Positions 1 to 9,516 of a DNA stretch of 12,402 nt are shown here, in pieces. Source of the stretch: a virus (Duplodnaviria; Heunggongvirae; Uroviricota; Caudoviricetes). The DNA lies in IMG/VR virus record IMGVR_UViG_3300032167_000069; one strand, given 5' to 3'. Position 1 is the stretch's first letter; each line of letters starts with the position of its first letter. The translations under genes and the position numbers were made by a program. The notes below the pieces were generated by a model that was not told the DNA's origin, made no database searches, and was given only the letters and a program-made list of their open reading frames with translations.

Positions 1-1321
1 TAAAACCAAAAGCCTCAATTACTTCATACAAGCCGAGAATGCCCATTGTACAATACTGCTTATCCATTTCAATCGCACCGTCTTGATAATTAGGTAATAA
101 ACCTTTTTCAACATTGCGCTTGATAATATGTCTTACAACATCAAGTGTTTTACAGCACAATGAAGCACGCTTTCTAAGCAAAGCCAAGTACTTTTTCTCA
201 TCACACTCTGTCTCAAGAGCAATACGCATAAGGTTGATTGTATTAACCTTTACAGAGCCAATAGATAAAGCTGTTCCGCCAATTGAATTAATAAATGCAT
301 TCAGCTTAGTTGTATCTGATAATAACCTACAACAATTGGATAAAGTTCCGACATCTCCGCTTACAAAGAAATTGCTGTCATTCCAAGTCGTGTTATGATC
401 TGAACACCAGCGAGCAAAAGGTTCATCAACAAATTTGCCGTTCTGATATAAGAGCGAATATGTTAATACGGGGAACGTAAACATATTTTCACTTCTTATT
501 TCTGACACAACTTCCATAAATATCTTTTGATGTTCAATTAAAGCTTCAATTTCATCAATGACATATGTTCCATCTGGATATTTAACCCCACCGAACAATG
601 ACTCAATGTAATTTCTGTCAAATATCGAAACATTAACAAAAGCCGTCTGGTCAATTCTCATAAATGGCTGATTAAGTCTGTATATCAACTTTTGGAATGT
701 TTGTCTTATGTAATACTCTGGAGATTTAATAACATATCCTGTTTCACAGTCTTTTTTCCAGAAGTAATATGTCCAAATTAAAATATTTGGAATGCCAACT
801 GCACCGGAGCTTCTGTTACTCATATAACTGATATATTCAATTACATCATCTACGAATGTTGTAAGGTGTTTCGGTGGCTGATTATTATAATTAGGCAAAA
901 AGAAAAGACCATCTGTTGCGAGTCTTGTTAAGTCGTATGCGTAGCAATATGGGAGATACGTTGTTGACGGAGCATCGTGTAAGTAAAAACCTCCATTGTA
1001 CTCTGTTTCCAACCACTCTTTCGCAATACGTAAATTGTATTTCTTTTTGAGTTCATAAAATATCTTATTAAATGCAAATAACTTATCGTGAGATTTACCT
1101 TTTTCGCTTAACAGGCTTCTAATGTCCTTGCTTGAAGCATTTGCATTTGCATCTATGGTTACATCTGCTACGTTTTTATCTACAAAACTGTCAATAAAAT
1201 CTGAAAAGTTTAATTGTGATTCGTGTATGCCATTAAGAATTTCAAAATCCTCTCCATACTTTTCATTCATCACAAGCATAGCCTTTTCAAAATCTTTGTT
1301 CATTTTTAACGGTATATTCAT
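1..1321 (-). CDS. nrdD: Class III (anaerobic) ribonucleoside-triphosphate reductase, N-terminal ~440 aa, truncated by the window edge
   Basis: Not in the ORF track because there is no stop in the window. Manual translation from ATG at 1321 gives MNIPLKMNKDFEKAM...GFYLHDAPSTTYLPYCYAYDL...PPKHLTTF...SNRSSGAVG...RLNQPFMR...FTFPVLT...LSNCCRL...GSVKVNTINLMRIA...TMGILGLYE, open to position 2. These match NrdD motifs. No N-terminal ATP cone is evident. RBS AGGAG upstream; the start abuts the redoxin stop (TAA ATG). Confidence 0.93.
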   Translation of the reverse strand, partial: MNIPLKMNKDFEKAMLVMNEKYGEDFEILNGIHESQLNFSDFIDSFVDKNVADVTIDANANASSKDIRSLLSEKGKSHDKLFAFNKIFYELKKKYNLRIAKEWLETEYNGGFYLHDAPSTTYLPYCYAYDLTRLATDGLFFLPNYNNQPPKHLTTFVDDVIEYISYMSNRSSGAVGIPNILIWTYYFWKKDCETGYVIKSPEYYIRQTFQKLIYRLNQPFMRIDQTAFVNVSIFDRNYIESLFGGVKYPDGTYVIDEIEALIEHQKIFMEVVSEIRSENMFTFPVLTYSLLYQNGKFVDEPFARWCSDHNTTWNDSNFFVSGDVGTLSNCCRLLSDTTKLNAFINSIGGTALSIGSVKVNTINLMRIALETECDEKKYLALLRKRASLCCKTLDVVRHIIKRNVEKGLLPNYQDGAIEMDKQYCTMGILGLYEVIEAFGF

Positions 1322-1528
1322 TTATCGTACACTCCTGTTCTTTAGCCATTCTACTGCTGTTGAAAAACTCATCTTAATGTCATTGACCTGTAGAACAGGC
1401 ACAGCATCAATTCCTTGTGCTGCAATCTTCTCAACGTCATCCACTTCGCAATAGTCAATATTGGCAGCGTCTAACTTCTCTTTTAAAACATTGCATTTCG
1501 GACAATGTGTAGTATATAAAATGTTCAT
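1322..1528 (-). CDS. Glutaredoxin/NrdH-like redoxin (68 aa)
   Basis: CPKC active site near the N-terminus (LYTTHCPKC), cis-Pro motif AVPVL, correct size, and position directly upstream of nrdD. Confidence 0.88.
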   Translation of the reverse strand: MNILYTTHCPKCNVLKEKLDAANIDYCEVDDVEKIAAQGIDAVPVLQVNDIKMSFSTAVEWLKNRSVR

Positions 1529-1546: not shown

Positions 1547-2107
1547 TCAACAAAATTGCGATTTCACCACATTATAAATTTCTTCCCAATTGTAAACACG
1601 CAACATTCCGTTCTTTTCTGCATCATAACTACGATTATGAGGTGCATCCATAAGAATTTTTATATATTTTCCACCCTCAAGGTTATGCACTCCATCATCA
1701 ATCAAAATATCACCGTTTACTAATTGCTTGTTTGAAGTAATGATTACATTCTTCCAAGAAATAAACGGGAAGTGTTTTTCTAAAACATTTTCAATTTTAC
1801 TCTTTATATCTGTATAATGTGATGTTGTAACAATATAAATATTGTGTCCATCATCAATGAGCCTTTTTATGTACTCAACGCTTCCCGGAAGAGGTTGCAC
1901 CTTACTCCAAAAATTAGGATTATGTAATGGAGCGTATATCTCTGTTTTTGTTAAAGATGGAAATACTTTAGTCATATCCCAAACAAAAACCTCATCATAT
2001 TTAACATCCGTTCCATAAGCCTTGTTTAATTCGTTAACCCAACATTCTAATAAATTTTCAATTGTATCATCCATATCAATCAGAATGGTAAGCTTTTTCT
2101 TATTCAT
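1547..2107 (-). CDS. 5'(3')-deoxyribonucleotidase (NT5C-like, HAD superfamily)
   Basis: HAD motif I ILIDMDDT, IVTT, K, and motif IV LIDDGVHNL. Start reassigned to ATG at 2107 (MNKKKLTILIDMD, RBS AAGGTG, 8-nt overlap with the upstream stop) instead of the track's 2206, which lies deep inside the upstream gene. Confidence 0.88.
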   Translation of the reverse strand: MNKKKLTILIDMDDTIENLLECWVNELNKAYGTDVKYDEVFVWDMTKVFPSLTKTEIYAPLHNPNFWSKVQPLPGSVEYIKRLIDDGHNIYIVTTSHYTDIKSKIENVLEKHFPFISWKNVIITSNKQLVNGDILIDDGVHNLEGGKYIKILMDAPHNRSYDAEKNGMLRVYNWEEIYNVVKSQFC

Positions 2108-2474
2108 TTTCTTCACCTTTGATGTAATGAGGCATATCATCCAGCTCCCACATACCAAGCTCTTGATAGTGCATAATTGCGAAAATATTCCAAGCCGCTG
2201 CTGCAAGATGGTCTTCGTCTGTCATACCCATTACATACTTATCCAAATGTCTTTTAGCTGAGTCTACACATCTTGAAAAAGGTATTCCCTTTTCCCAATT
2301 ACGATCTGCATACTTTTGAGCACCAAGCTCATACCACTCTGCTAATCTACGAACAGCAAAAGGTGAGATTAAATCATATCTTCCCTTGCCTATTGATGGT
2401 TCTCTGATGGCTTTGTTTTCACCGTATGAAATACGCTCTCCGCCGTCATTAATCTTATTTTTTAAATCTTCCAT
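2100..2474 (-). CDS. DUF5664-type dATP/dGTP diphosphohydrolase domain protein (124 aa)
   Basis: Recognisable pattern KGRYDLI...GAQKYADRNWEKGIP.SR..DSAKRHL....DEDHLAAAAWN. RBS AAGGAG upstream. Substrate specificity is not established from sequence. Confidence 0.82.
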   Translation of the reverse strand: MEDLKNKINDGGERISYGENKAIREPSIGKGRYDLISPFAVRRLAEWYELGAQKYADRNWEKGIPFSRCVDSAKRHLDKYVMGMTDEDHLAAAAWNIFAIMHYQELGMWELDDMPHYIKGEENE

Positions 2475-2495: not shown

Positions 2496-3143
2496 TTAAT
2501 TTATCCACTTAATTGTTGTGTCGCCTGCATACCCCTTTGTCCATACAAACCAAGCGTAACATTTAGCAGATGACATTCTCTTTGGACTACCATCTCTATT
2601 GTAAATTGTGTTACCCTCTTTGTCTTTTGCTGTAAAATCACCATTCATACCGCAAAGAACTCGATTAACACAAACATATACCGTCTCAGGTGGTGTAGCA
2701 ATAAAAAGCTCTCTTCTTGAATCACTTTCTAAAAACTGAATAGGAAGAAATAAAGCTAATTTATTACCATCGTCCAATAACTTCAAAGAATGTTCAACCC
2801 ATTCTTTCGCATATTTATATGGCGGATTTGTAACGATGTTTGGTGCGAGAGCTTTATCGCATTCAAAGAAATCAACTCCACCGACACCGTAACCTCTATC
2901 AATCAAATCTGTGTCAACAACATCGTATCCAAGCTCCTTAAACCTTTTGGATAAATGTCCTTCACCGCAACAATTTTCCCAAATACCACCTTCAAACTTT
3001 TCTACACTACATATTAAATCAGCCGCTAATGGCTCAGTTGCATAATAGTCGTGCTCTGCTCTTTCGTGGTCTGTATGATTGCTCGCTCCTAATGTAGCAA
3101 ACGTAGTTTTCTTGTTGCCTGTCCAATCTTGTTCTTTTCTCAT
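2496..3143 (-). CDS. Orphan amino-DNA methyltransferase (N6-adenine or N4-cytosine), phage type
   Basis: SAM-binding motif I (IWENCCGEGHLS), then DLID.GYG, VDFF and catalytic NPPY; also DYYATEP and YAWFVW. ATGA overlap with the upstream gene. No cognate restriction enzyme in the window. Confidence 0.88.
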   Translation of the reverse strand: MRKEQDWTGNKKTTFATLGASNHTDHERAEHDYYATEPLAADLICSVEKFEGGIWENCCGEGHLSKRFKELGYDVVDTDLIDRGYGVGGVDFFECDKALAPNIVTNPPYKYAKEWVEHSLKLLDDGNKLALFLPIQFLESDSRRELFIATPPETVYVCVNRVLCGMNGDFTAKDKEGNTIYNRDGSPKRMSSAKCYAWFVWTKGYAGDTTIKWIN

Positions 3144-3910
3144 GCGCTCTCACCAACCTCATCTATGAAGATAAACTCTTGTGAATAAGGCAATGTGCGA
3201 GCCCAAGAAATAAAATTTGACAAATTAACATCATCTATGCCCGACCACTCGTTAAGTTTATGAAAACGTCTTTGACCTTTACTACACATAGCAAGTAAAT
3301 TTTCATAATTCATTGTTACTGTTCTGGTCTGCAACCAACTTTCTGGCAACCATCGAATTAACTCTTTCCAGTAATACTTTGCCTGTGCCTTACAATGCTT
3401 TCTCTCTGCTTCTGATAAGTGTTCAAGTTTTGATTTTTCAACATAAGTCAAATAATATTTTCTCAACTCTTCTAATCCATCAATTAATTTATGAACACCG
3501 TCATTATTAAGAGAAAATTCTGGCTGATAGTCATCAATTTCAAAACAATCAATTGTTATAGGATTGCTTGTGATTTTGTGCATCGTGCTTGTTGAATTGG
3601 CAACTGTACCAACCTTATATGTATCAAATTCTTTCCACCAATATAGTGGAGCTGTAATATCAACAGAAACAAATATCTGCCTCATAAATTTTCTATGTTC
3701 GCTACCTGCACGGATAAGTGTTTGTGCAAGCCTTAAATCATTTTCACCAATGAAAAATCCGTATTCTCCACACATAATAGCTGGCTCGTGGTTTTCATTT
3801 GCAATATCTTTTGTCCATCCGCTGTCGCTCTTATCCCAACTATTTTTTGGATTTCTCATACCTCTAAGTGCGTGTTCAAATCCCCACACTTCTGTATTTT
3901 CAAATTTCAC
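3140..3910 (-). CDS. ThyX/Thy1-like protein (FAD-dependent thymidylate synthase-like, divergent active-site motif)
   Basis: Start reassigned to GTG at 3910 (GGAGGT at 3916-3921; MKFENTEVWGFEHALRGMRNPKNSWDKSDS). AGSEHRKFMRQI.VSVDITAPLYWWKEFDTYKVGTVANSTSTMHKI and C-terminal LPESWLQTRTVTMNYENL align by eye with the ThyX layout, but the canonical RHR motif is absent. Confidence 0.65.
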   Translation of the reverse strand: MKFENTEVWGFEHALRGMRNPKNSWDKSDSGWTKDIANENHEPAIMCGEYGFFIGENDLRLAQTLIRAGSEHRKFMRQIFVSVDITAPLYWWKEFDTYKVGTVANSTSTMHKITSNPITIDCFEIDDYQPEFSLNNDGVHKLIDGLEELRKYYLTYVEKSKLEHLSEAERKHCKAQAKYYWKELIRWLPESWLQTRTVTMNYENLLAMCSKGQRRFHKLNEWSGIDDVNLSNFISWARTLPYSQEFIFIDEVGESA

Positions 3911-4430
3911 CGTAAACCTCCAGCAATGCTTTTTGCGGTGCAAAATCCTTAAAAAGCTCAATCTCTTTAAATAACCTTGCCCGTATAGCATCTTCCTTTA
4001 ATTCAAACCTTCCGATAAATAATTTTTTACAGTTATATGTAATACTTGCCGTCCATTTATTTCTTTGTTTATCATAATGAACTCCCGTAATACCCGATTT
4101 GTTTGTAGAGAGCAAACCTCTATTTCGCATATTTTCAGAACGCTTACAGGTTCTTAGATTGGATTTTCGATTGTCTGCTCTATTCTTGTTGATGTGGTCA
4201 ACAAACTCATTTGGTTTTGCATTTATAACAATCCTATGAAACCTTGCAAAACATAGCTTTCCGGCATAAAAATAGTTATGTGTTAAATAACCATCTTTGT
4301 CCTTATACCACACTCTGCTCTCTACAATATCAAGGTCGTCTAAATCAAAGTAAAACGGTGTATTTTGGACATAAATAATGCCATAGTTATCGAATAGTTC
4401 TATCGTATTATCGTTGTGCAAAAGCATCAT
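3900..4430 (-). CDS. Free-standing HNH endonuclease with C-terminal AP2 DNA-binding domain (putative homing endonuclease)
   Basis: HNH motif VDHINKNRADNRKSNLRTCKRSENMRN, followed by AP2 signature NKSGITGVHYDKQRNKWTASI...IGRF...EDAIRAR. ATGA overlap upstream and 11-nt overlap with the thyX-like gene. Confidence 0.92.
   Translation of the reverse strand: MMLLHNDNTIELFDNYGIIYVQNTPFYFDLDDLDIVESRVWYKDKDGYLTHNYFYAGKLCFARFHRIVINAKPNEFVDHINKNRADNRKSNLRTCKRSENMRNRGLLSTNKSGITGVHYDKQRNKWTASITYNCKKLFIGRFELKEDAIRARLFKEIELFKDFAPQKALLEVYGEI
3916..3921 (-). promoter_or_regulatory. Shine-Dalgarno GGAGGT for the thyX-like gene, embedded in the HNH 3' end
   Basis: GGAGGT 5 nt upstream of GTG at 3910. Confidence 0.8.
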
Positions 4431-5344: not shown

Positions 5345-8300
5345 CTATTCATAAATGTGTGAATAGGCTGTTAGAGTAAAGTATGAGCCGTCTTTATCAT
5401 AATTTGTACACAATATAATATCGTCTTTTTTAATAGGATCGTTATTATATATTTTGTTAAATACTGTAAAACGGCTTTCTACTCCACTGCCTATTGACTG
5501 TGTTATAATGCTATAACCAAATTGAACGCCATCTCTTTTTCTTTTTAGAGGATAAACCTCTTTTACAAAAAGTTTTCTGCGGTCATTATCTTTGCCGGAC
5601 ACATATCCTGTATAACCCATAATATCCGAAAAATTTTTGACCTTTAATATATCGCTTAAATCTGGCATATTTGTATCTTTCAGCATTTGCTCACATTCTC
5701 GCATTATTGCAACAACATCCAAAAGAATATAACTTTTTGATTCAGCTCCACTCTTTGTTTTGTCATTTGCATATTTTTTTACAATGCTATCAATTGGTGT
5801 ATCTGCAATACTTTCTTTTTTAATCTGTTTTGCAGAACCTTTTTTAAACATTTCAAATATATCGCATATTCTTAAAAGCTCTCTTTGATTTCCAAACTCC
5901 GTAAAATAATCAATCTTAATCAAGATATCAATTTGTCTGGAATTTGCTGATGTTTTGCTATAAATATCGCTTAATAAATCAATAAAATATGTATATTTTT
6001 TGCTCTTTGACAGTTTATAAATTTCATCTGCAATGGATTCGCTCATAAATTTAACAGATGTTAAACCTTTTGCAATTATGTTTTGTTCCTTGTCAAAGAA
6101 ATAATCTCCTTTTGAATATCCAAATTTGGGAGATGTTATTTTTACCCCAACCTTTTTTGCATACTTAACTATTGCCGCCGTTTTCTCTGCGTTATCTTTA
6201 AAAATGTTTAAAGCGGCAGTAATAAACTCAATAGGATGATAGTAACGCAAATATCCACAAATATAACCAATTAGACTGTAGGCATCACTATGATTCCAAG
6301 AAAATGCATAATCACTCGCATCCAAAATGCCCTGTTTAATTGGTGGGAAAATTTCTTCAAGCTTCTCTGTTAGTACGTTAAATGTAACATTTGAAAAATC
6401 AAGAAATCTATCGTGAATTTCTCCGATGAATTGCTCTGTGCCTTTTTTCTTGGCAATTCCTCGTCTTACCGTATCACTTTCGGCATCTGAGTAACCACAG
6501 AAATTTTTACAGAAACGCATAATATCTTCCTGCATTGTAATGCGTCCAAAGGTCATAGCCAACGCATCGTCTAACTCTTTAAAACCTGTAACATTCACAT
6601 TACCATTGGCAATATCATCACGGAAACTTGCACATCCGGGGCGAATTAATCCGTTACCAAAAGATAGCCACTTAATATACGAGAAATCTTTATTGACCTC
6701 TTTAGCTTTTGCTATAGTGGAGTCCGACATAAACTTTTTTAAGTATGCTTGCGCTGAGTTTGACTCCCATTGGAAAATCAGCGTCGTATCGTCACGAATG
6801 CTCTTCCACACTGCTTCGTCATCCAAATCAACATTATCAGGATCGAGTCTATCAATACCAAGAATTTTACAGGTCTCATTGATAACGCCTATATTATCTA
6901 ACCCCAGAATATCCAGCTTAACATACATCAGGTCGTCAAGCTCTTTCATATTTATCATTGATACAGGATAGTCAGATGTTGAAATACTGCAAAGACCAAC
7001 TGTTTCATCTATTGGCAAATCACTAATTAATACACCGCTTGGATGAGTTCCTATAGATACAATTGTTCCATCAACGATGTCCACATAAGTGAAAACCTCT
7101 GGGTATTCCTTACGCCATTTTTCATCAATTTCCCACTTCTTTTTATCATTTAAGAAAACTGCATTACTAAGTTGTTGTGCTTCATTGAGTGATACATTTA
7201 AAGCTCTGCAAACATCCTTAATGGCACCTTTCATCGCTATAGTATTAAATGTAATAATTTCTGCCGACCTAATCTCTGGTAGGTTCATTTTATCTCTTAA
7301 TAAAAACTGTTTTACTGTGTCTCTGTCTTTACCAGAATAGTCCGTATCAATATCAGCATTGGTGACACGAGAGGGGTTCATAAAACGGAAAAAGTTAAGG
7401 TCGAATTTCAAACTATCCATCTTTGTAATACCTAAAATGTAAGCTATCATACTGCCTGAGACAGAACCTCTACCATATCCGCATTGAATACCATTTGCCG
7501 CTTCCCATTCACGAAGATACGTTTGTAATAACATAAAGTCGATTGATTGGGTTTTTTCATAAACCTCAAACTCTTCTTCAATTACTTTGTTGATACGTTC
7601 TTCCGAATAACGTTCTTTAATATATGGATTTTTTTCTTTTGCTTCCATAACTTTTTGTCTAAAAGTTTCCTTTGGATTGTCGTATATATGCGGATATTTT
7701 GTGTTGGTATCAAGTGTAAACTCTTCAACCATATCAGCAAGACGATTTGTGTTGTCTATCGCTTGCATATAATCCTCTTTGGGTAGTGAATTCTGAATTT
7801 TATATGCTTCAACTATTTCTTGAAAGCTGTGGAACTTTAAATCCCACTTATCTTCACCTTCAAAATAAATGTTTTTTGAGCGTTGCAAGATACTCCTTCC
7901 CTTTTCGTGTACCTCGTTCAATACGTGAGTGTCAGTACCGGCAATGAGTGGAATACCATATTCTTCCGATAAACCTTTAAGATATTGATTATATTTAACT
8001 TGTTTTTCATCAATGTGATGTCCAACTTCAAAGAAACATCTCTCTTTGTTTTTGGACATAAAATTCAAAAACCTCGTCTTGGTTTTTTCCTCAGCTTTAT
8101 GTAAAACTCCGCCAATACAGGCAGTAGTGAAAATAATATTATTGCTTGTATTAAAAAGCTCCTCAAAAGAAATTCGAGGAACATAATAAAAATGATTGTC
8201 TTTTCTGTTAAAAGAGTTGGATACAAGCTTATTAAGCTCCTTAAACCCTTCGTAATTTCGTGCAATTAAAACGCAGTGGTAATTGTCTCTTATTTTTTCA

Positions 8301-8536
8301 TCAAGTGTTTCAGTTAAATAAACTTCTGCTGCGTGAATGTATTTCATACCAGCCGCTTCTATTGCTTGCTTTTTATGATACCATTCAAATACCGAGCCGT
8401 GTTCTGAAAAAGCTAATGCTTTCATTCCACATTCTTTTGCAGCCTCAATATATTCCTTAAACTTTGTAACTGAATCTATGTTTGTTACACCATTAGACAA
8501 ATCACTATGTAAATGATAAATAACGTAATTACTCAA
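5345..8536 (-). CDS. dnaE: DNA polymerase III alpha subunit (DnaE-type, family C)
   Basis: PHP domain (HLHSD, SEHG, GTDTH), GYGRGSVSGS, catalytic ADIDTD, GTHPSGV, KLDILGL, YAFSWNHSDAY. Start reassigned to TTG at 8536 (AGGAGGT at 8544-8550, 7-nt spacer, TTGA overlap with the primase stop), giving ~1063 aa. Confidence 0.96.
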   Translation of the reverse strand: MSNYVIYHLHSDLSNGVTNIDSVTKFKEYIEAAKECGMKALAFSEHGSVFEWYHKKQAIEAAGMKYIHAAEVYLTETLDEKIRDNYHCVLIARNYEGFKELNKLVSNSFNRKDNHFYYVPRISFEELFNTSNNIIFTTACIGGVLHKAEEKTKTRFLNFMSKNKERCFFEVGHHIDEKQVKYNQYLKGLSEEYGIPLIAGTDTHVLNEVHEKGRSILQRSKNIYFEGEDKWDLKFHSFQEIVEAYKIQNSLPKEDYMQAIDNTNRLADMVEEFTLDTNTKYPHIYDNPKETFRQKVMEAKEKNPYIKERYSEERINKVIEEEFEVYEKTQSIDFMLLQTYLREWEAANGIQCGYGRGSVSGSMIAYILGITKMDSLKFDLNFFRFMNPSRVTNADIDTDYSGKDRDTVKQFLLRDKMNLPEIRSAEIITFNTIAMKGAIKDVCRALNVSLNEAQQLSNAVFLNDKKKWEIDEKWRKEYPEVFTYVDIVDGTIVSIGTHPSGVLISDLPIDETVGLCSISTSDYPVSMINMKELDDLMYVKLDILGLDNIGVINETCKILGIDRLDPDNVDLDDEAVWKSIRDDTTLIFQWESNSAQAYLKKFMSDSTIAKAKEVNKDFSYIKWLSFGNGLIRPGCASFRDDIANGNVNVTGFKELDDALAMTFGRITMQEDIMRFCKNFCGYSDAESDTVRRGIAKKKGTEQFIGEIHDRFLDFSNVTFNVLTEKLEEIFPPIKQGILDASDYAFSWNHSDAYSLIGYICGYLRYYHPIEFITAALNIFKDNAEKTAAIVKYAKKVGVKITSPKFGYSKGDYFFDKEQNIIAKGLTSVKFMSESIADEIYKLSKSKKYTYFIDLLSDIYSKTSANSRQIDILIKIDYFTEFGNQRELLRICDIFEMFKKGSAKQIKKESIADTPIDSIVKKYANDKTKSGAESKSYILLDVVAIMRECEQMLKDTNMPDLSDILKVKNFSDIMGYTGYVSGKDNDRRKLFVKEVYPLKRKRDGVQFGYSIITQSIGSGVESRFTVFNKIYNNDPIKKDDIILCTNYDKDGSYFTLTAYSHIYE

Positions 8537-9516
8537 TTTATTGACCTCCTCCTCTCGTATAATTTCTTCCAAACCTCAAAACCTGCATCAACTGGAGCCA
8601 TTTTAGGCGATAGGAGATTGTCAAAATTCTTTACCCATTCAATTCTTACATATCTTTTCAATCTCTGTATATTATCATCATCTCTTATATTCACATCTTC
8701 ATCCAAAGCAAAAACCACTCTAATGCCAAGCTTTATTAAAAAGATAAGCTGTTGTGGGTTTAAGTGAGATGTTAAAATTGCACATGAATTCTTAATTCCC
8801 CATTCGTCTGCAAGCATAACTGACTTACAGCCTTCAAAAATTATTATCTCTTTCTTTTCCAGTATGGCTTGCACATTATCTGAAAACCCATATAAGGTAT
8901 CCAGATAACCAAGCGGTTTGAAATATGTGTACTTTCTTATTTCTTTTTCTTTGAAATCTTTGTCTAAAGTACGTCCACATACATTGATGATATCCCCTGA
9001 ATAATTTTTGATAGGAAAAACTATTCTGTTTGAAAAAGAGTCATAATGAACACCGAACTTCCTCATCGTTTCCAAGCTAATACCTTCATTGACCCATTCC
9101 TGTAGTTTATCAGTATTAAACTCATATCTCTCCATATAGTTAGTTGGTAGTATCACACTTTTTGATTCTTTTTCGGCAGGTGATTTCTTTTTAAACCTCT
9201 TTGCAATTTTTGTGCTTTCAAGCCGACCGACAACCTGCCCAGAACTCTCTGTGATATTGGCATATTTCTTTAAAATATTTAATGCCTCTATAAAACCACA
9301 GTCGTTATACCTTTGAATAAAAGATATCAGGTTGCCGCCCGCACCCGAACTAAAATCATAAAATTTCTGCTTGTCCGTATTCACGGAAAACGATGGGGTC
9401 TTTTCGTCTTTGAATGGAGATAGTGCCCACCACTCTCCATTTTTTTCTTCAAAATCACAGTATTGCGATATATATTCTAAAATATCAACCTGTTCTAAAA
9501 TATCATCAACTTCCAT
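8533..9516 (-). CDS. dnaG: DnaG-like DNA primase (degenerate CHC2-type N-domain plus TOPRIM)
   Basis: PFKDEKTPSFSV and GAGGNLISFI (CHC2-like), RIVFPI, GR, KY, TOPRIM IIFEG and ALDED. Located between the helicase and the polymerase. RBS GGAGGT. Confidence 0.9.
   Translation of the reverse strand: MEVDDILEQVDILEYISQYCDFEEKNGEWWALSPFKDEKTPSFSVNTDKQKFYDFSSGAGGNLISFIQRYNDCGFIEALNILKKYANITESSGQVVGRLESTKIAKRFKKKSPAEKESKSVILPTNYMERYEFNTDKLQEWVNEGISLETMRKFGVHYDSFSNRIVFPIKNYSGDIINVCGRTLDKDFKEKEIRKYTYFKPLGYLDTLYGFSDNVQAILEKKEIIIFEGCKSVMLADEWGIKNSCAILTSHLNPQQLIFLIKLGIRVVFALDEDVNIRDDDNIQRLKRYVRIEWVKNFDNLLSPKMAPVDAGFEVWKKLYERRRSIN
8544..8550 (-). promoter_or_regulatory. Shine-Dalgarno AGGAGGT for dnaE, embedded in the primase 3' end
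   Basis: Perfect anti-SD complement 7 nt upstream of TTG at 8536. Confidence 0.8.

Follow-up and report, generated by a model that had tools for sequence, protein, structure and literature searches.

Two enzyme families, ThyA and ThyX, are generally credited with thymidylate synthesis, and the second is recognised by an RHR motif. Here, we describe a gene for a ThyX-fold protein in which this motif is replaced, located on the minus strand of a 12,402-nucleotide stretch of DNA from a virus of the Caudoviricetes (IMG/VR record IMGVR_UViG_3300032167_000069), the whole of which is referred to as the window. The gene and its main features are listed below, with residues of Thermotoga maritima ThyX marked Tm.

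3140–3910, minus strand: gene for the ThyX-fold protein, 256 amino acids, PHROG 6721 family (open reading frame and translation; PHROG E 2.4e-58; AlphaFold2 mean pLDDT, the predicted local distance difference test score, 92.2; structural alignment Z 14.0)
3917–3921, minus strand: ribosome-binding site GGAGG, 6 nucleotides 5′ of the GTG at 3910 (sequence reading)
3614–3622, minus strand: TYK (T97-Y98-K99) where ThyX has RHR (merged profile alignment with canonical ThyX)
3578–3595, minus strand: S106-T-S108-T-M110-H111 at the position of ThyX E-x-S-x-R-Y (Tm E86, S88, R90 and Y91; profile merge and invariant alignment columns)
3260–3271, minus strand: R214-R-F-H217, where R214 corresponds to the dUMP-binding arginine of ThyX (Tm R174) and H217 lies at or beside Tm H178 (profile merge)

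The reading frame starts with a GTG at 3910 and stops at 3140, with an 11-nucleotide overlap between its start and the stop of the preceding HNH gene. A longer ATG frame reaching 3991 was also considered and rejected as the gene, because the homologues all begin with a MKFENTEV-like N-terminus. The 26-residue peptide quoted in the preliminary description of this DNA (starting PLYWWKEFDTYK) is real and is encoded at 3572–3649 on the minus strand, where the plus strand gives stop codons.

Fold, predicted assembly and active-site residues

The preliminary description had proposed a ThyX-like enzyme, and structure prediction agrees with this fold. An AlphaFold2 model based on a 50-sequence alignment had a mean pLDDT of 92.2 and a predicted template modelling score of 0.86, and the top 50 PDB matches listed by Foldseek were all ThyX (probability 1.00, E about 2e-6, 13–16% identity). 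VIA-align matched the model, over a span of residues 1–252, to 189 of the 207 residues of Helicobacter pylori ThyX (Z 14.0, root-mean-square deviation 2.6 Å), with the best non-ThyX chain reaching Z 6.6. The sole family match of the protein was PHROG 6721, annotated as of unknown function (E 2.4e-58, residues 2–247 on positions 9–215 of a 218-position profile). PDB sequence searches with the window protein and with a 50-sequence profile gave nothing meaningful, and the AlphaFold DB clusters held an NrdD-fused family member and ordinary ThyX, with no better-named relative. The Pfam Thy1 profile was weakly touched by 7 of 50 family members and by 12 of 40 phage copies; relatives of the window protein scored 11–23.4 bits against it, all under the gathering threshold of 24.8, including gp68 of Clostridium phage phiCTP1 at 23.4 bits. 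Homology to ThyX is therefore argued mainly from the modelled structure.

Four copies of the protein (residues 1–249) were predicted to assemble with an interaction score (ipSAE) of 0.87, versus 0.00 for the best control. Among proteins solved as one-chain pairs, 20 of 30 reached this mark, compared with 1 of 23 solved as single chains. Contact agreement among the tetramer runs was at least 83% and the pLDDT of the partner chains at least 84, although the score may partly reflect likeness to solved ThyX tetramers. The confident part of the predicted interface includes residues 16–20, 74–84, 88–99, 109–110, 185–192 and 195–199, which are the conserved motifs, as would be expected if the active site lay between subunits as in ThyX.

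Residues were mapped by merging the family alignment with that of nine canonical phage ThyX sequences in MAFFT, and T. maritima numbering was transferred through an alignment of D29 ThyX with PDB entries. The earlier claim that RHR had become TYK is borne out by this map (Tm R78-H79-R80 corresponds to T97-Y98-K99), and RHR is found in none of approximately 324 family members. The reported loss of the arginine after the serine also holds (Tm R90 to M110). The serine itself is indeed kept (Tm S88 to S108), but its spacing is preserved only if a one-residue gap, i.e., x8, is allowed. Similarly, the reported change of glutamine to glutamate is present (Tm Q75 to E94) but is no departure from ThyX: D29 ThyX, P318 and one gut-phage ThyX also have glutamate at this position, which makes it normal ThyX variation. 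Among the remaining positions, Tm H53 (the histidine of GH, now H72), Tm A68-P69 (A87-P88) and Tm R174 (R214) are kept, and Tm E86, Y91 and R165 are changed to S106, H111 and E203, respectively. Tm R147 corresponds to R186, which is glutamine in one third of the family; Tm N163 corresponds to N201, which varies within the family; and the counterpart of Tm H178 is approximately H217 or K218.

These replacements affect most of the ligand contacts of known ThyX enzymes. The RHR residues bind the phosphates, ribityl chain and isoalloxazine ring of flavin adenine dinucleotide (FAD) and also contact dUMP; in Mycobacterium tuberculosis (Mtb) ThyX, S71 and R190 bind FAD, R87, R95, S105, R107 and R199 bind dUMP, and Y108 forms a lid (PMC6514825). 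By sequence, all FAD contacts are replaced in the window protein (RHR to TYK, Mtb S71 to K74, R190 to E203). The only dUMP contacts that remain are S108 (Mtb S105) and R214 (Mtb R199), while R95, R107, Y108 and R87 have become T97, M110, H111 and P88. Altogether, six of the eight mappable FAD or dUMP contacts (list of PMC6514825) are substituted, and the protein reads TYK-x8-S where the ThyX motif of Myllykallio 2002, as used in PMC2826268, is RHRX7S.

The new residues are highly conserved. Across approximately 320 family members, R214 and H217 are each present in 308 of 308, Y98 and S106 in 323 of 324, S108 in 322 of 324, M110 in 323 of 325 and H111 in 321 of 325, followed by T97 (317 of 324) and K99 (313 of 324). 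R19, D58, K74, R77, E94, D96, R196, E221 and W222 are also nearly invariant, and position 107 is threonine in 228 members and cysteine in 81. Because the replacement residues are nearly invariant over so many members, the conservation has the pattern of a working site and not that of a decaying copy.

Gene neighbourhood, phage slot and distribution of the family

The other genes of the window that bear on the position of the ThyX-fold gene are as follows.

5345–8572, minus strand: DNA polymerase III alpha (PolIII-alpha), the upstream anchor of the thymidylate synthase slot (Pfam; synteny in 64 related loci)
3900–4430, minus strand: free-standing HNH homing endonuclease (HNH_3 and AP2-like), directly upstream of the ThyX-fold gene (Pfam HNH_3 2.1e-08; PHROG 99 3.4e-37)
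2496–3143, minus strand: small DNA methyltransferase with an NPPY motif, overlapping the stop of the ThyX-fold gene by 4 nucleotides (PHROG 799 'DNA methyltransferase' 1.3e-60)
2100–2474, minus strand: MazZ/MazG-like nucleoside triphosphate (NTP) diphosphohydrolase domain protein, PF18909 (Pfam 9.2e-21; PHROG 801 5.2e-23)
1547–2206, minus strand: NT5C-type 5′-deoxyribonucleotidase (Pfam NT5C 3.8e-36, from residue 41; conserved in sister phages)
1322–1528, minus strand: small redoxin resembling glutaredoxin (Grx) or thioredoxin (weak Pfam matches; kept before NrdD in sister phages)
2–1321, minus strand: anaerobic ribonucleotide reductase NrdD, running off the window (Pfam NRDD 3.5e-48)

The order on the minus strand is PD-(D/E)XK nuclease, DnaB, DnaG, PolIII-alpha, four small open reading frames and HNH, and it continues with the ThyX-fold gene, the methyltransferase (whose translation contains both NPPY and a glycine-rich motif), the MazZ-like gene, NT5C, the redoxin and NrdD. 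The pair of HNH and ThyX-fold genes also occurs in the closest relative, locus L106. The listed NT5C frame shares 107 nucleotides with the MazZ-like gene; given this overlap and a Pfam match that begins at residue 41, its true start is probably an internal codon near 2086.

The phage group of the window was defined by PolIII-alpha relatives with 42–90% identity (64 loci), and 50 of the genomes were searched whole. The order of the group is o103, o128, PDDEXK, DnaB, DnaG, PolIII-alpha, o75, a further stretch, the slot, and then DNMK (a deoxynucleoside monophosphate, dNMP, kinase of the T4 gp1 type), ClpP, PhoH, NT5C, Grx and NrdD. Canonical ThyX above the Pfam cut-off was detected in 40 of the 50 genomes and the PHROG 6721 family in two, whereas no genome had both and none had ThyA. 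When examined gene by gene, the slot directly before DNMK is occupied by ThyX of two types in sister phages and by the PHROG 6721 family in the window, L106, L137 and L165. In L137 and L165, the family gene stands in place of ThyX and the remainder of the cassette is unchanged. Beyond this group, none of 40 other family-bearing phage genomes (17 of them at least 90% complete) contained ThyA or above-cut-off ThyX, and their weak Thy1 matches, where coordinates were checked, were the family copy itself. The record of the window likewise had no PF00303 (ThyA) match.

Several additional features of the group were observed. Comparison with L108, L113 and L137 shows that the DNMK-ClpP-PhoH block following the slot has been lost from the window, where the NPPY methyltransferase and PF18909 genes stand instead; no DNMK was found in the 27-kb record. 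Two loci (L110:15422-16156 and L112:15213-15947) have in the slot upstream of DNMK a third RHR-less ThyX-like lineage of 244 amino acids, here named family O. It shares with the PHROG 6721 family the slot, a weak likeness to Thy1 (its ESM Atlas neighbours have Thy1 in only 12–52% of members) and the absence of RHR, but has DSH at the RHR position followed by a retained S-x-R; it is detected by neither the family profile nor the ThyX profile and is a separate lineage. Three sister genomes (G074, G075 and G088; loci L148, L149 and L167) have one in-frame TAG in each canonical ThyX frame, which may point to a reassigned TAG in that subgroup and not to broken genes. The PolIII-alpha match of L160:10001-14296 is broken by approximately 1 kb (11665 to 12680), possibly by an intein or endonuclease insertion, and four sister phages (G058, G070, G084 and G087) each encode a pair of canonical ThyX genes, which score about 107 and 90 bits and lie approximately 28 kb apart.

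The family is large. A single search scored over 8,000 clusters at 90% identity, and clusters at 50% identity numbered 3,075 (E ≤ 1e-3). It was located at no fewer than 556 loci of IMG/VR and in the genomes of at least 595 bacterial species, and very many gut phages have it. Isolates carrying it include Clostridium phage phiCTP1, the phiCD211 group of Clostridioides difficile phages and Enterocloster phages, in which every copy is annotated as hypothetical. Its domain is fused to DNMK in several clusters, and fusions to a guanylate-kinase-like domain and to NrdD are also found. Clusters P0299 (33 member sequences) and P0330 combine an N-terminal FolD-like NAD(P)-binding methylene-tetrahydrofolate dehydrogenase domain with the family domain, and one metagenomic protein (P0292) has a weak C-terminal MetE-like (Meth_synt_2) domain (E 5e-8). 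Mobile elements are frequent: dozens of clusters (including P0182, P0240, P0261, P0267 and P0274-P0290) contain an in-frame NUMOD4-HNH-HTH insert after approximately residue 130, too short for an intein splicing domain, and a GIY-YIG gene lies upstream of the family gene in about 34 phage loci. At five loci (L030, L040, L042, L048 and L070), two open reading frames make up the split gene, and Rfam searches revealed no intron family in them.

Bacterial genomes with the family provide a second view of its role. Among 50 such genomes from several phyla, 36 lack both ThyA and canonical ThyX. We then sampled 115 genomes of one order of Clostridia (completeness of at least 90% requested), in which ThyA was present in 71, ThyX in 36, both in three and neither in 11. 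An intact family member is present in 12 genomes, which include all of these 11; apart from salvage, no further route to dTMP is known for them. The remaining carrier (G163) additionally encodes a ThyX of low score (about 101 bits) that is close to the phage type, and three genomes with a fragmentary or stop-containing family copy have ThyA or ThyX. The chromosomal proteins are 68–70% identical to the window protein in the multiple alignment (57–61% by tblastn); their core motifs are identical to its own, and they share its insertion of two residues ahead of R214.

The bacterial copies are also linked to dihydrofolate reductase (DHFR). The family gene lies near the sole DHFR gene in six of the intact-copy genomes, directly before it in five and 2 kb away in one, a layout that mirrors the thyA-folA arrangement of related genomes. 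Translational coupling to DHFR was seen in four Clostridia/Lachnospiraceae metagenome-assembled genomes that have no ThyA, no ThyX and no second DHFR, and one such locus is taken to be chromosomal because its neighbours on either side are YbiT, an ABC-F factor, and a PL11 polysaccharide lyase. Overall, DHFR is present in 69 of 71 genomes with ThyA, 2 of 32 with ThyX only and 6 of 12 with an intact family member. None of approximately 150 phage loci has a DHFR within about 8–10 kb of the family gene, and the link is therefore a bacterial one only.

Candidate function and alternative explanations

We consider it probable (roughly three chances in four) that the ThyX-fold gene is the thymidylate synthase of this phage, belonging to a large RHR-less branch of the ThyX superfamily. 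The preliminary description had left the choice between a highly divergent thymidylate synthase and a flavoenzyme with a different nucleotide substrate or product. Replacement of ThyX in the slot of sister phages and of ThyA or ThyX in gut Clostridia favours the former, and no specific support for the latter emerged. The fold, the motif replacement and its conservation, the predicted tetramer, the exchange in the slot and the complementarity with ThyA and ThyX were all computed here; the reaction, the use of methylene-tetrahydrofolate and the redox partner are our inferences. According to this proposal, a homotetramer of the ThyX fold would convert dUMP to dTMP with a folate one-carbon donor, and the ThyX contacts RHR, R90, Y91 and R165 would be replaced by an invariant set comprising D96-T-Y98-K99, S106, S108, M110-H111, R214 and H217 together with R19, K74, R77 and R196.

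How such an enzyme would be reduced depends on how the DHFR pattern is understood. The more probable account, at somewhat better than even odds, is that the family displaced thyA in thyA-folA operons and needs no DHFR, and that folA is being lost as in ThyX organisms. This would entail ThyX-like stoichiometry and an external reductant, presumably flavin held by new residues. Alternatively, dihydrofolate might be released as by ThyA, with the DHFR-less genomes using an unrecognised reductase; we regard this as possible but clearly less probable, because alternative reductases seem to be rare in the order (only 2 of 71 ThyA genomes lack DHFR). Since half of the dependent bacteria have no DHFR, we favour an enzyme that would release tetrahydrofolate and still depend on an external reductant, probably a flavin with a new mode of binding. 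A more tentative proposal, which we consider rather improbable, is a third mechanistic class, namely a flavin-free ThyX-fold enzyme with methylene-tetrahydrofolate as both carbon and hydride donor and dihydrofolate as product. It would explain the loss of every FAD-binding residue as well as the tight coupling to the sole DHFR in several Clostridia, and the role of the ThyA cysteine nucleophile might then fall to an invariant serine (S106 or S108) with H111 or H217 as its activator.

A number of observations weigh against a thymidylate synthase. The window protein had no match in Pfam or NCBIfam, Thy1 included even at E 10, and hhalign comparisons of the family profile with D29 ThyX and with nine canonical phage ThyX were not significant (probability below 1%), with only the C-terminal LP..N..R motif aligned. 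With only S108 and R214 kept among the FAD and dUMP contacts, the known ThyX mechanism cannot run unchanged. Literature searches turned up PolB and reviews but no publication on the PHROG 6721 family. The slot is empty in L118 and L130, so that a thymidylate synthase is dispensable there, and sharing of the slot could result from cassette exchange driven by homing endonucleases. The genes downstream in the window (methyltransferase, MazZ-like, 5′-nucleotidase and no DNMK) would also suit a base-replacement pathway. Furthermore, the 12 intact-copy genomes probably form two or three clades, so the complementarity may count few displacement events, and bacteria without ThyA and ThyX could in principle live on thymidine salvage.

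It is unlikely, in our estimation, that the protein makes a non-canonical pyrimidine nucleotide for phage DNA modification (e.g., hydroxymethyl-dUMP, or methyl- or hydroxymethyl-dCMP), its altered pocket (R90 to M, Y91 to H, R165 to E) changing the substrate or halting the reaction before reduction. The rewritten active-site residues would fit such a role, as would the MazZ-like NTP diphosphohydrolase and NT5C downstream in the window, since base-replacing phages (SPO1, PBS2 and Z-genome phages) purge the canonical nucleotide with activities of this kind. The fusion to DNMK points in the same direction, the T4 enzyme being a kinase that handles hydroxymethyl-dCMP. However, sister phages with canonical ThyX have NT5C, Grx and NrdD just the same, which also bears on a Z-genome reading of the MazZ-like neighbour (for which no PurZ search was made), and L137 and L165 exchange ThyX for the family gene with an otherwise unaltered cassette. 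Lone copies occur in small phages (phiCTP1 and bajarodcaudo virus 5) with no purge enzymes annotated nearby, and the 68–70% identical chromosomal copies are the sole thymidylate synthase candidates in 11 Clostridia genomes that need ordinary dTMP.

We give a similarly low chance to some other folate- or nucleotide-linked reaction, in which case the slot would be a recombination hot spot for nucleotide-metabolism cassettes borne by homing endonucleases. Such endonucleases do often flank or interrupt the gene (HNH in the window and L106, GIY-YIG in about 34 loci, NUMOD4-HNH inserts), the slot content varies (two ThyX types, family O or empty) and DHFR is kept in only half of the carrier bacteria, but this leaves unexplained why the carriers are exactly the genomes without ThyA and ThyX and why the gene takes the thyA position before folA; the FolD and dNMP kinase fusions also fit thymidylate synthesis best. 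Least probable of all, and very improbable in absolute terms, is a non-catalytic ThyX-fold protein that acts as a nucleotide-binding regulator or as a scaffold of a replication or dNTP-synthesis complex. Many phages place the gene among replication proteins (ligase, DnaB, primase and AAA_24) and not among metabolic genes, and residues held to be essential in ThyX are lost (PMC6514825). Such a role is difficult to reconcile with a near-invariant polar set (D58, Y98, S106, S108, H111, R214, H217 and E221) in the predicted interface motifs, with the phyletic complementarity to true thymidylate synthases and with fusions to enzymes of the same pathway.

Significance and comparison with known systems

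In many phages, and in approximately one-tenth of the genomes sampled from an order of gut Clostridia, the family appears to be the sole thymidylate synthase. If this is true, the annotation of carrier genomes, their metabolic models and any 'thymidine auxotroph' calls would change, and the ThyX mechanism would need to allow for an active site that lacks RHR, R90 and Y91. The question also bears on the action of antifolates and ThyX inhibitors against gut anaerobes. Previous surveys dropped sequences that deviate from the ThyX motif (PMC2826268).

The closest known system is ThyX, or flavin-dependent thymidylate synthase (PF02511; TM0449 1O26, H. pylori 3AH5 and M. tuberculosis 3GWC), with which the window protein shares the whole-length fold (Z 12–14), the predicted tetramer, H72, S108, the LP motif, R214 and the slot in sister phages. 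It differs in the replacement of RHR by TYK, R90 by M, Y91 by H and R165 by E, in the lack of conservation at R147, in scores below the Pfam threshold and in its own set of invariant residues. The family also adjoins DHFR in bacteria, whereas ThyX organisms of the same order hardly ever have this enzyme (2 of 32). The window protein thus fails the tests by which ThyX is defined in sequence (Pfam threshold, RHRX7S and ligand contacts) while sharing the fold, predicted oligomer and genomic role, and for this reason we do not file it as ThyX.

The likeness to ThyA (PF00303) is one of genomic context: the family gene lies directly upstream of the only DHFR in five Clostridia genomes, and the two are mutually exclusive, with ThyA in none of the 12 intact-copy genomes. 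ThyA has an unrelated fold, the family has no conserved cysteine nucleophile, and half of the family-reliant genomes lack DHFR, compared with 2 of 71 ThyA genomes. Another comparison is PolB, the UMP/dUMP C5-methylase of polyoxin biosynthesis (4P5A/4P5B; Z 11.2–11.8), which is likewise a ThyX-fold paralogue with a changed role (PMC5954106). PolB is described as a neofunctionalised ThyX that still methylates dUMP in addition to UMP. It belongs to an antibiotic gene cluster, in contrast to the PHROG 6721 family, which has lost the ThyX motif and occupies the thymidylate synthase slot.

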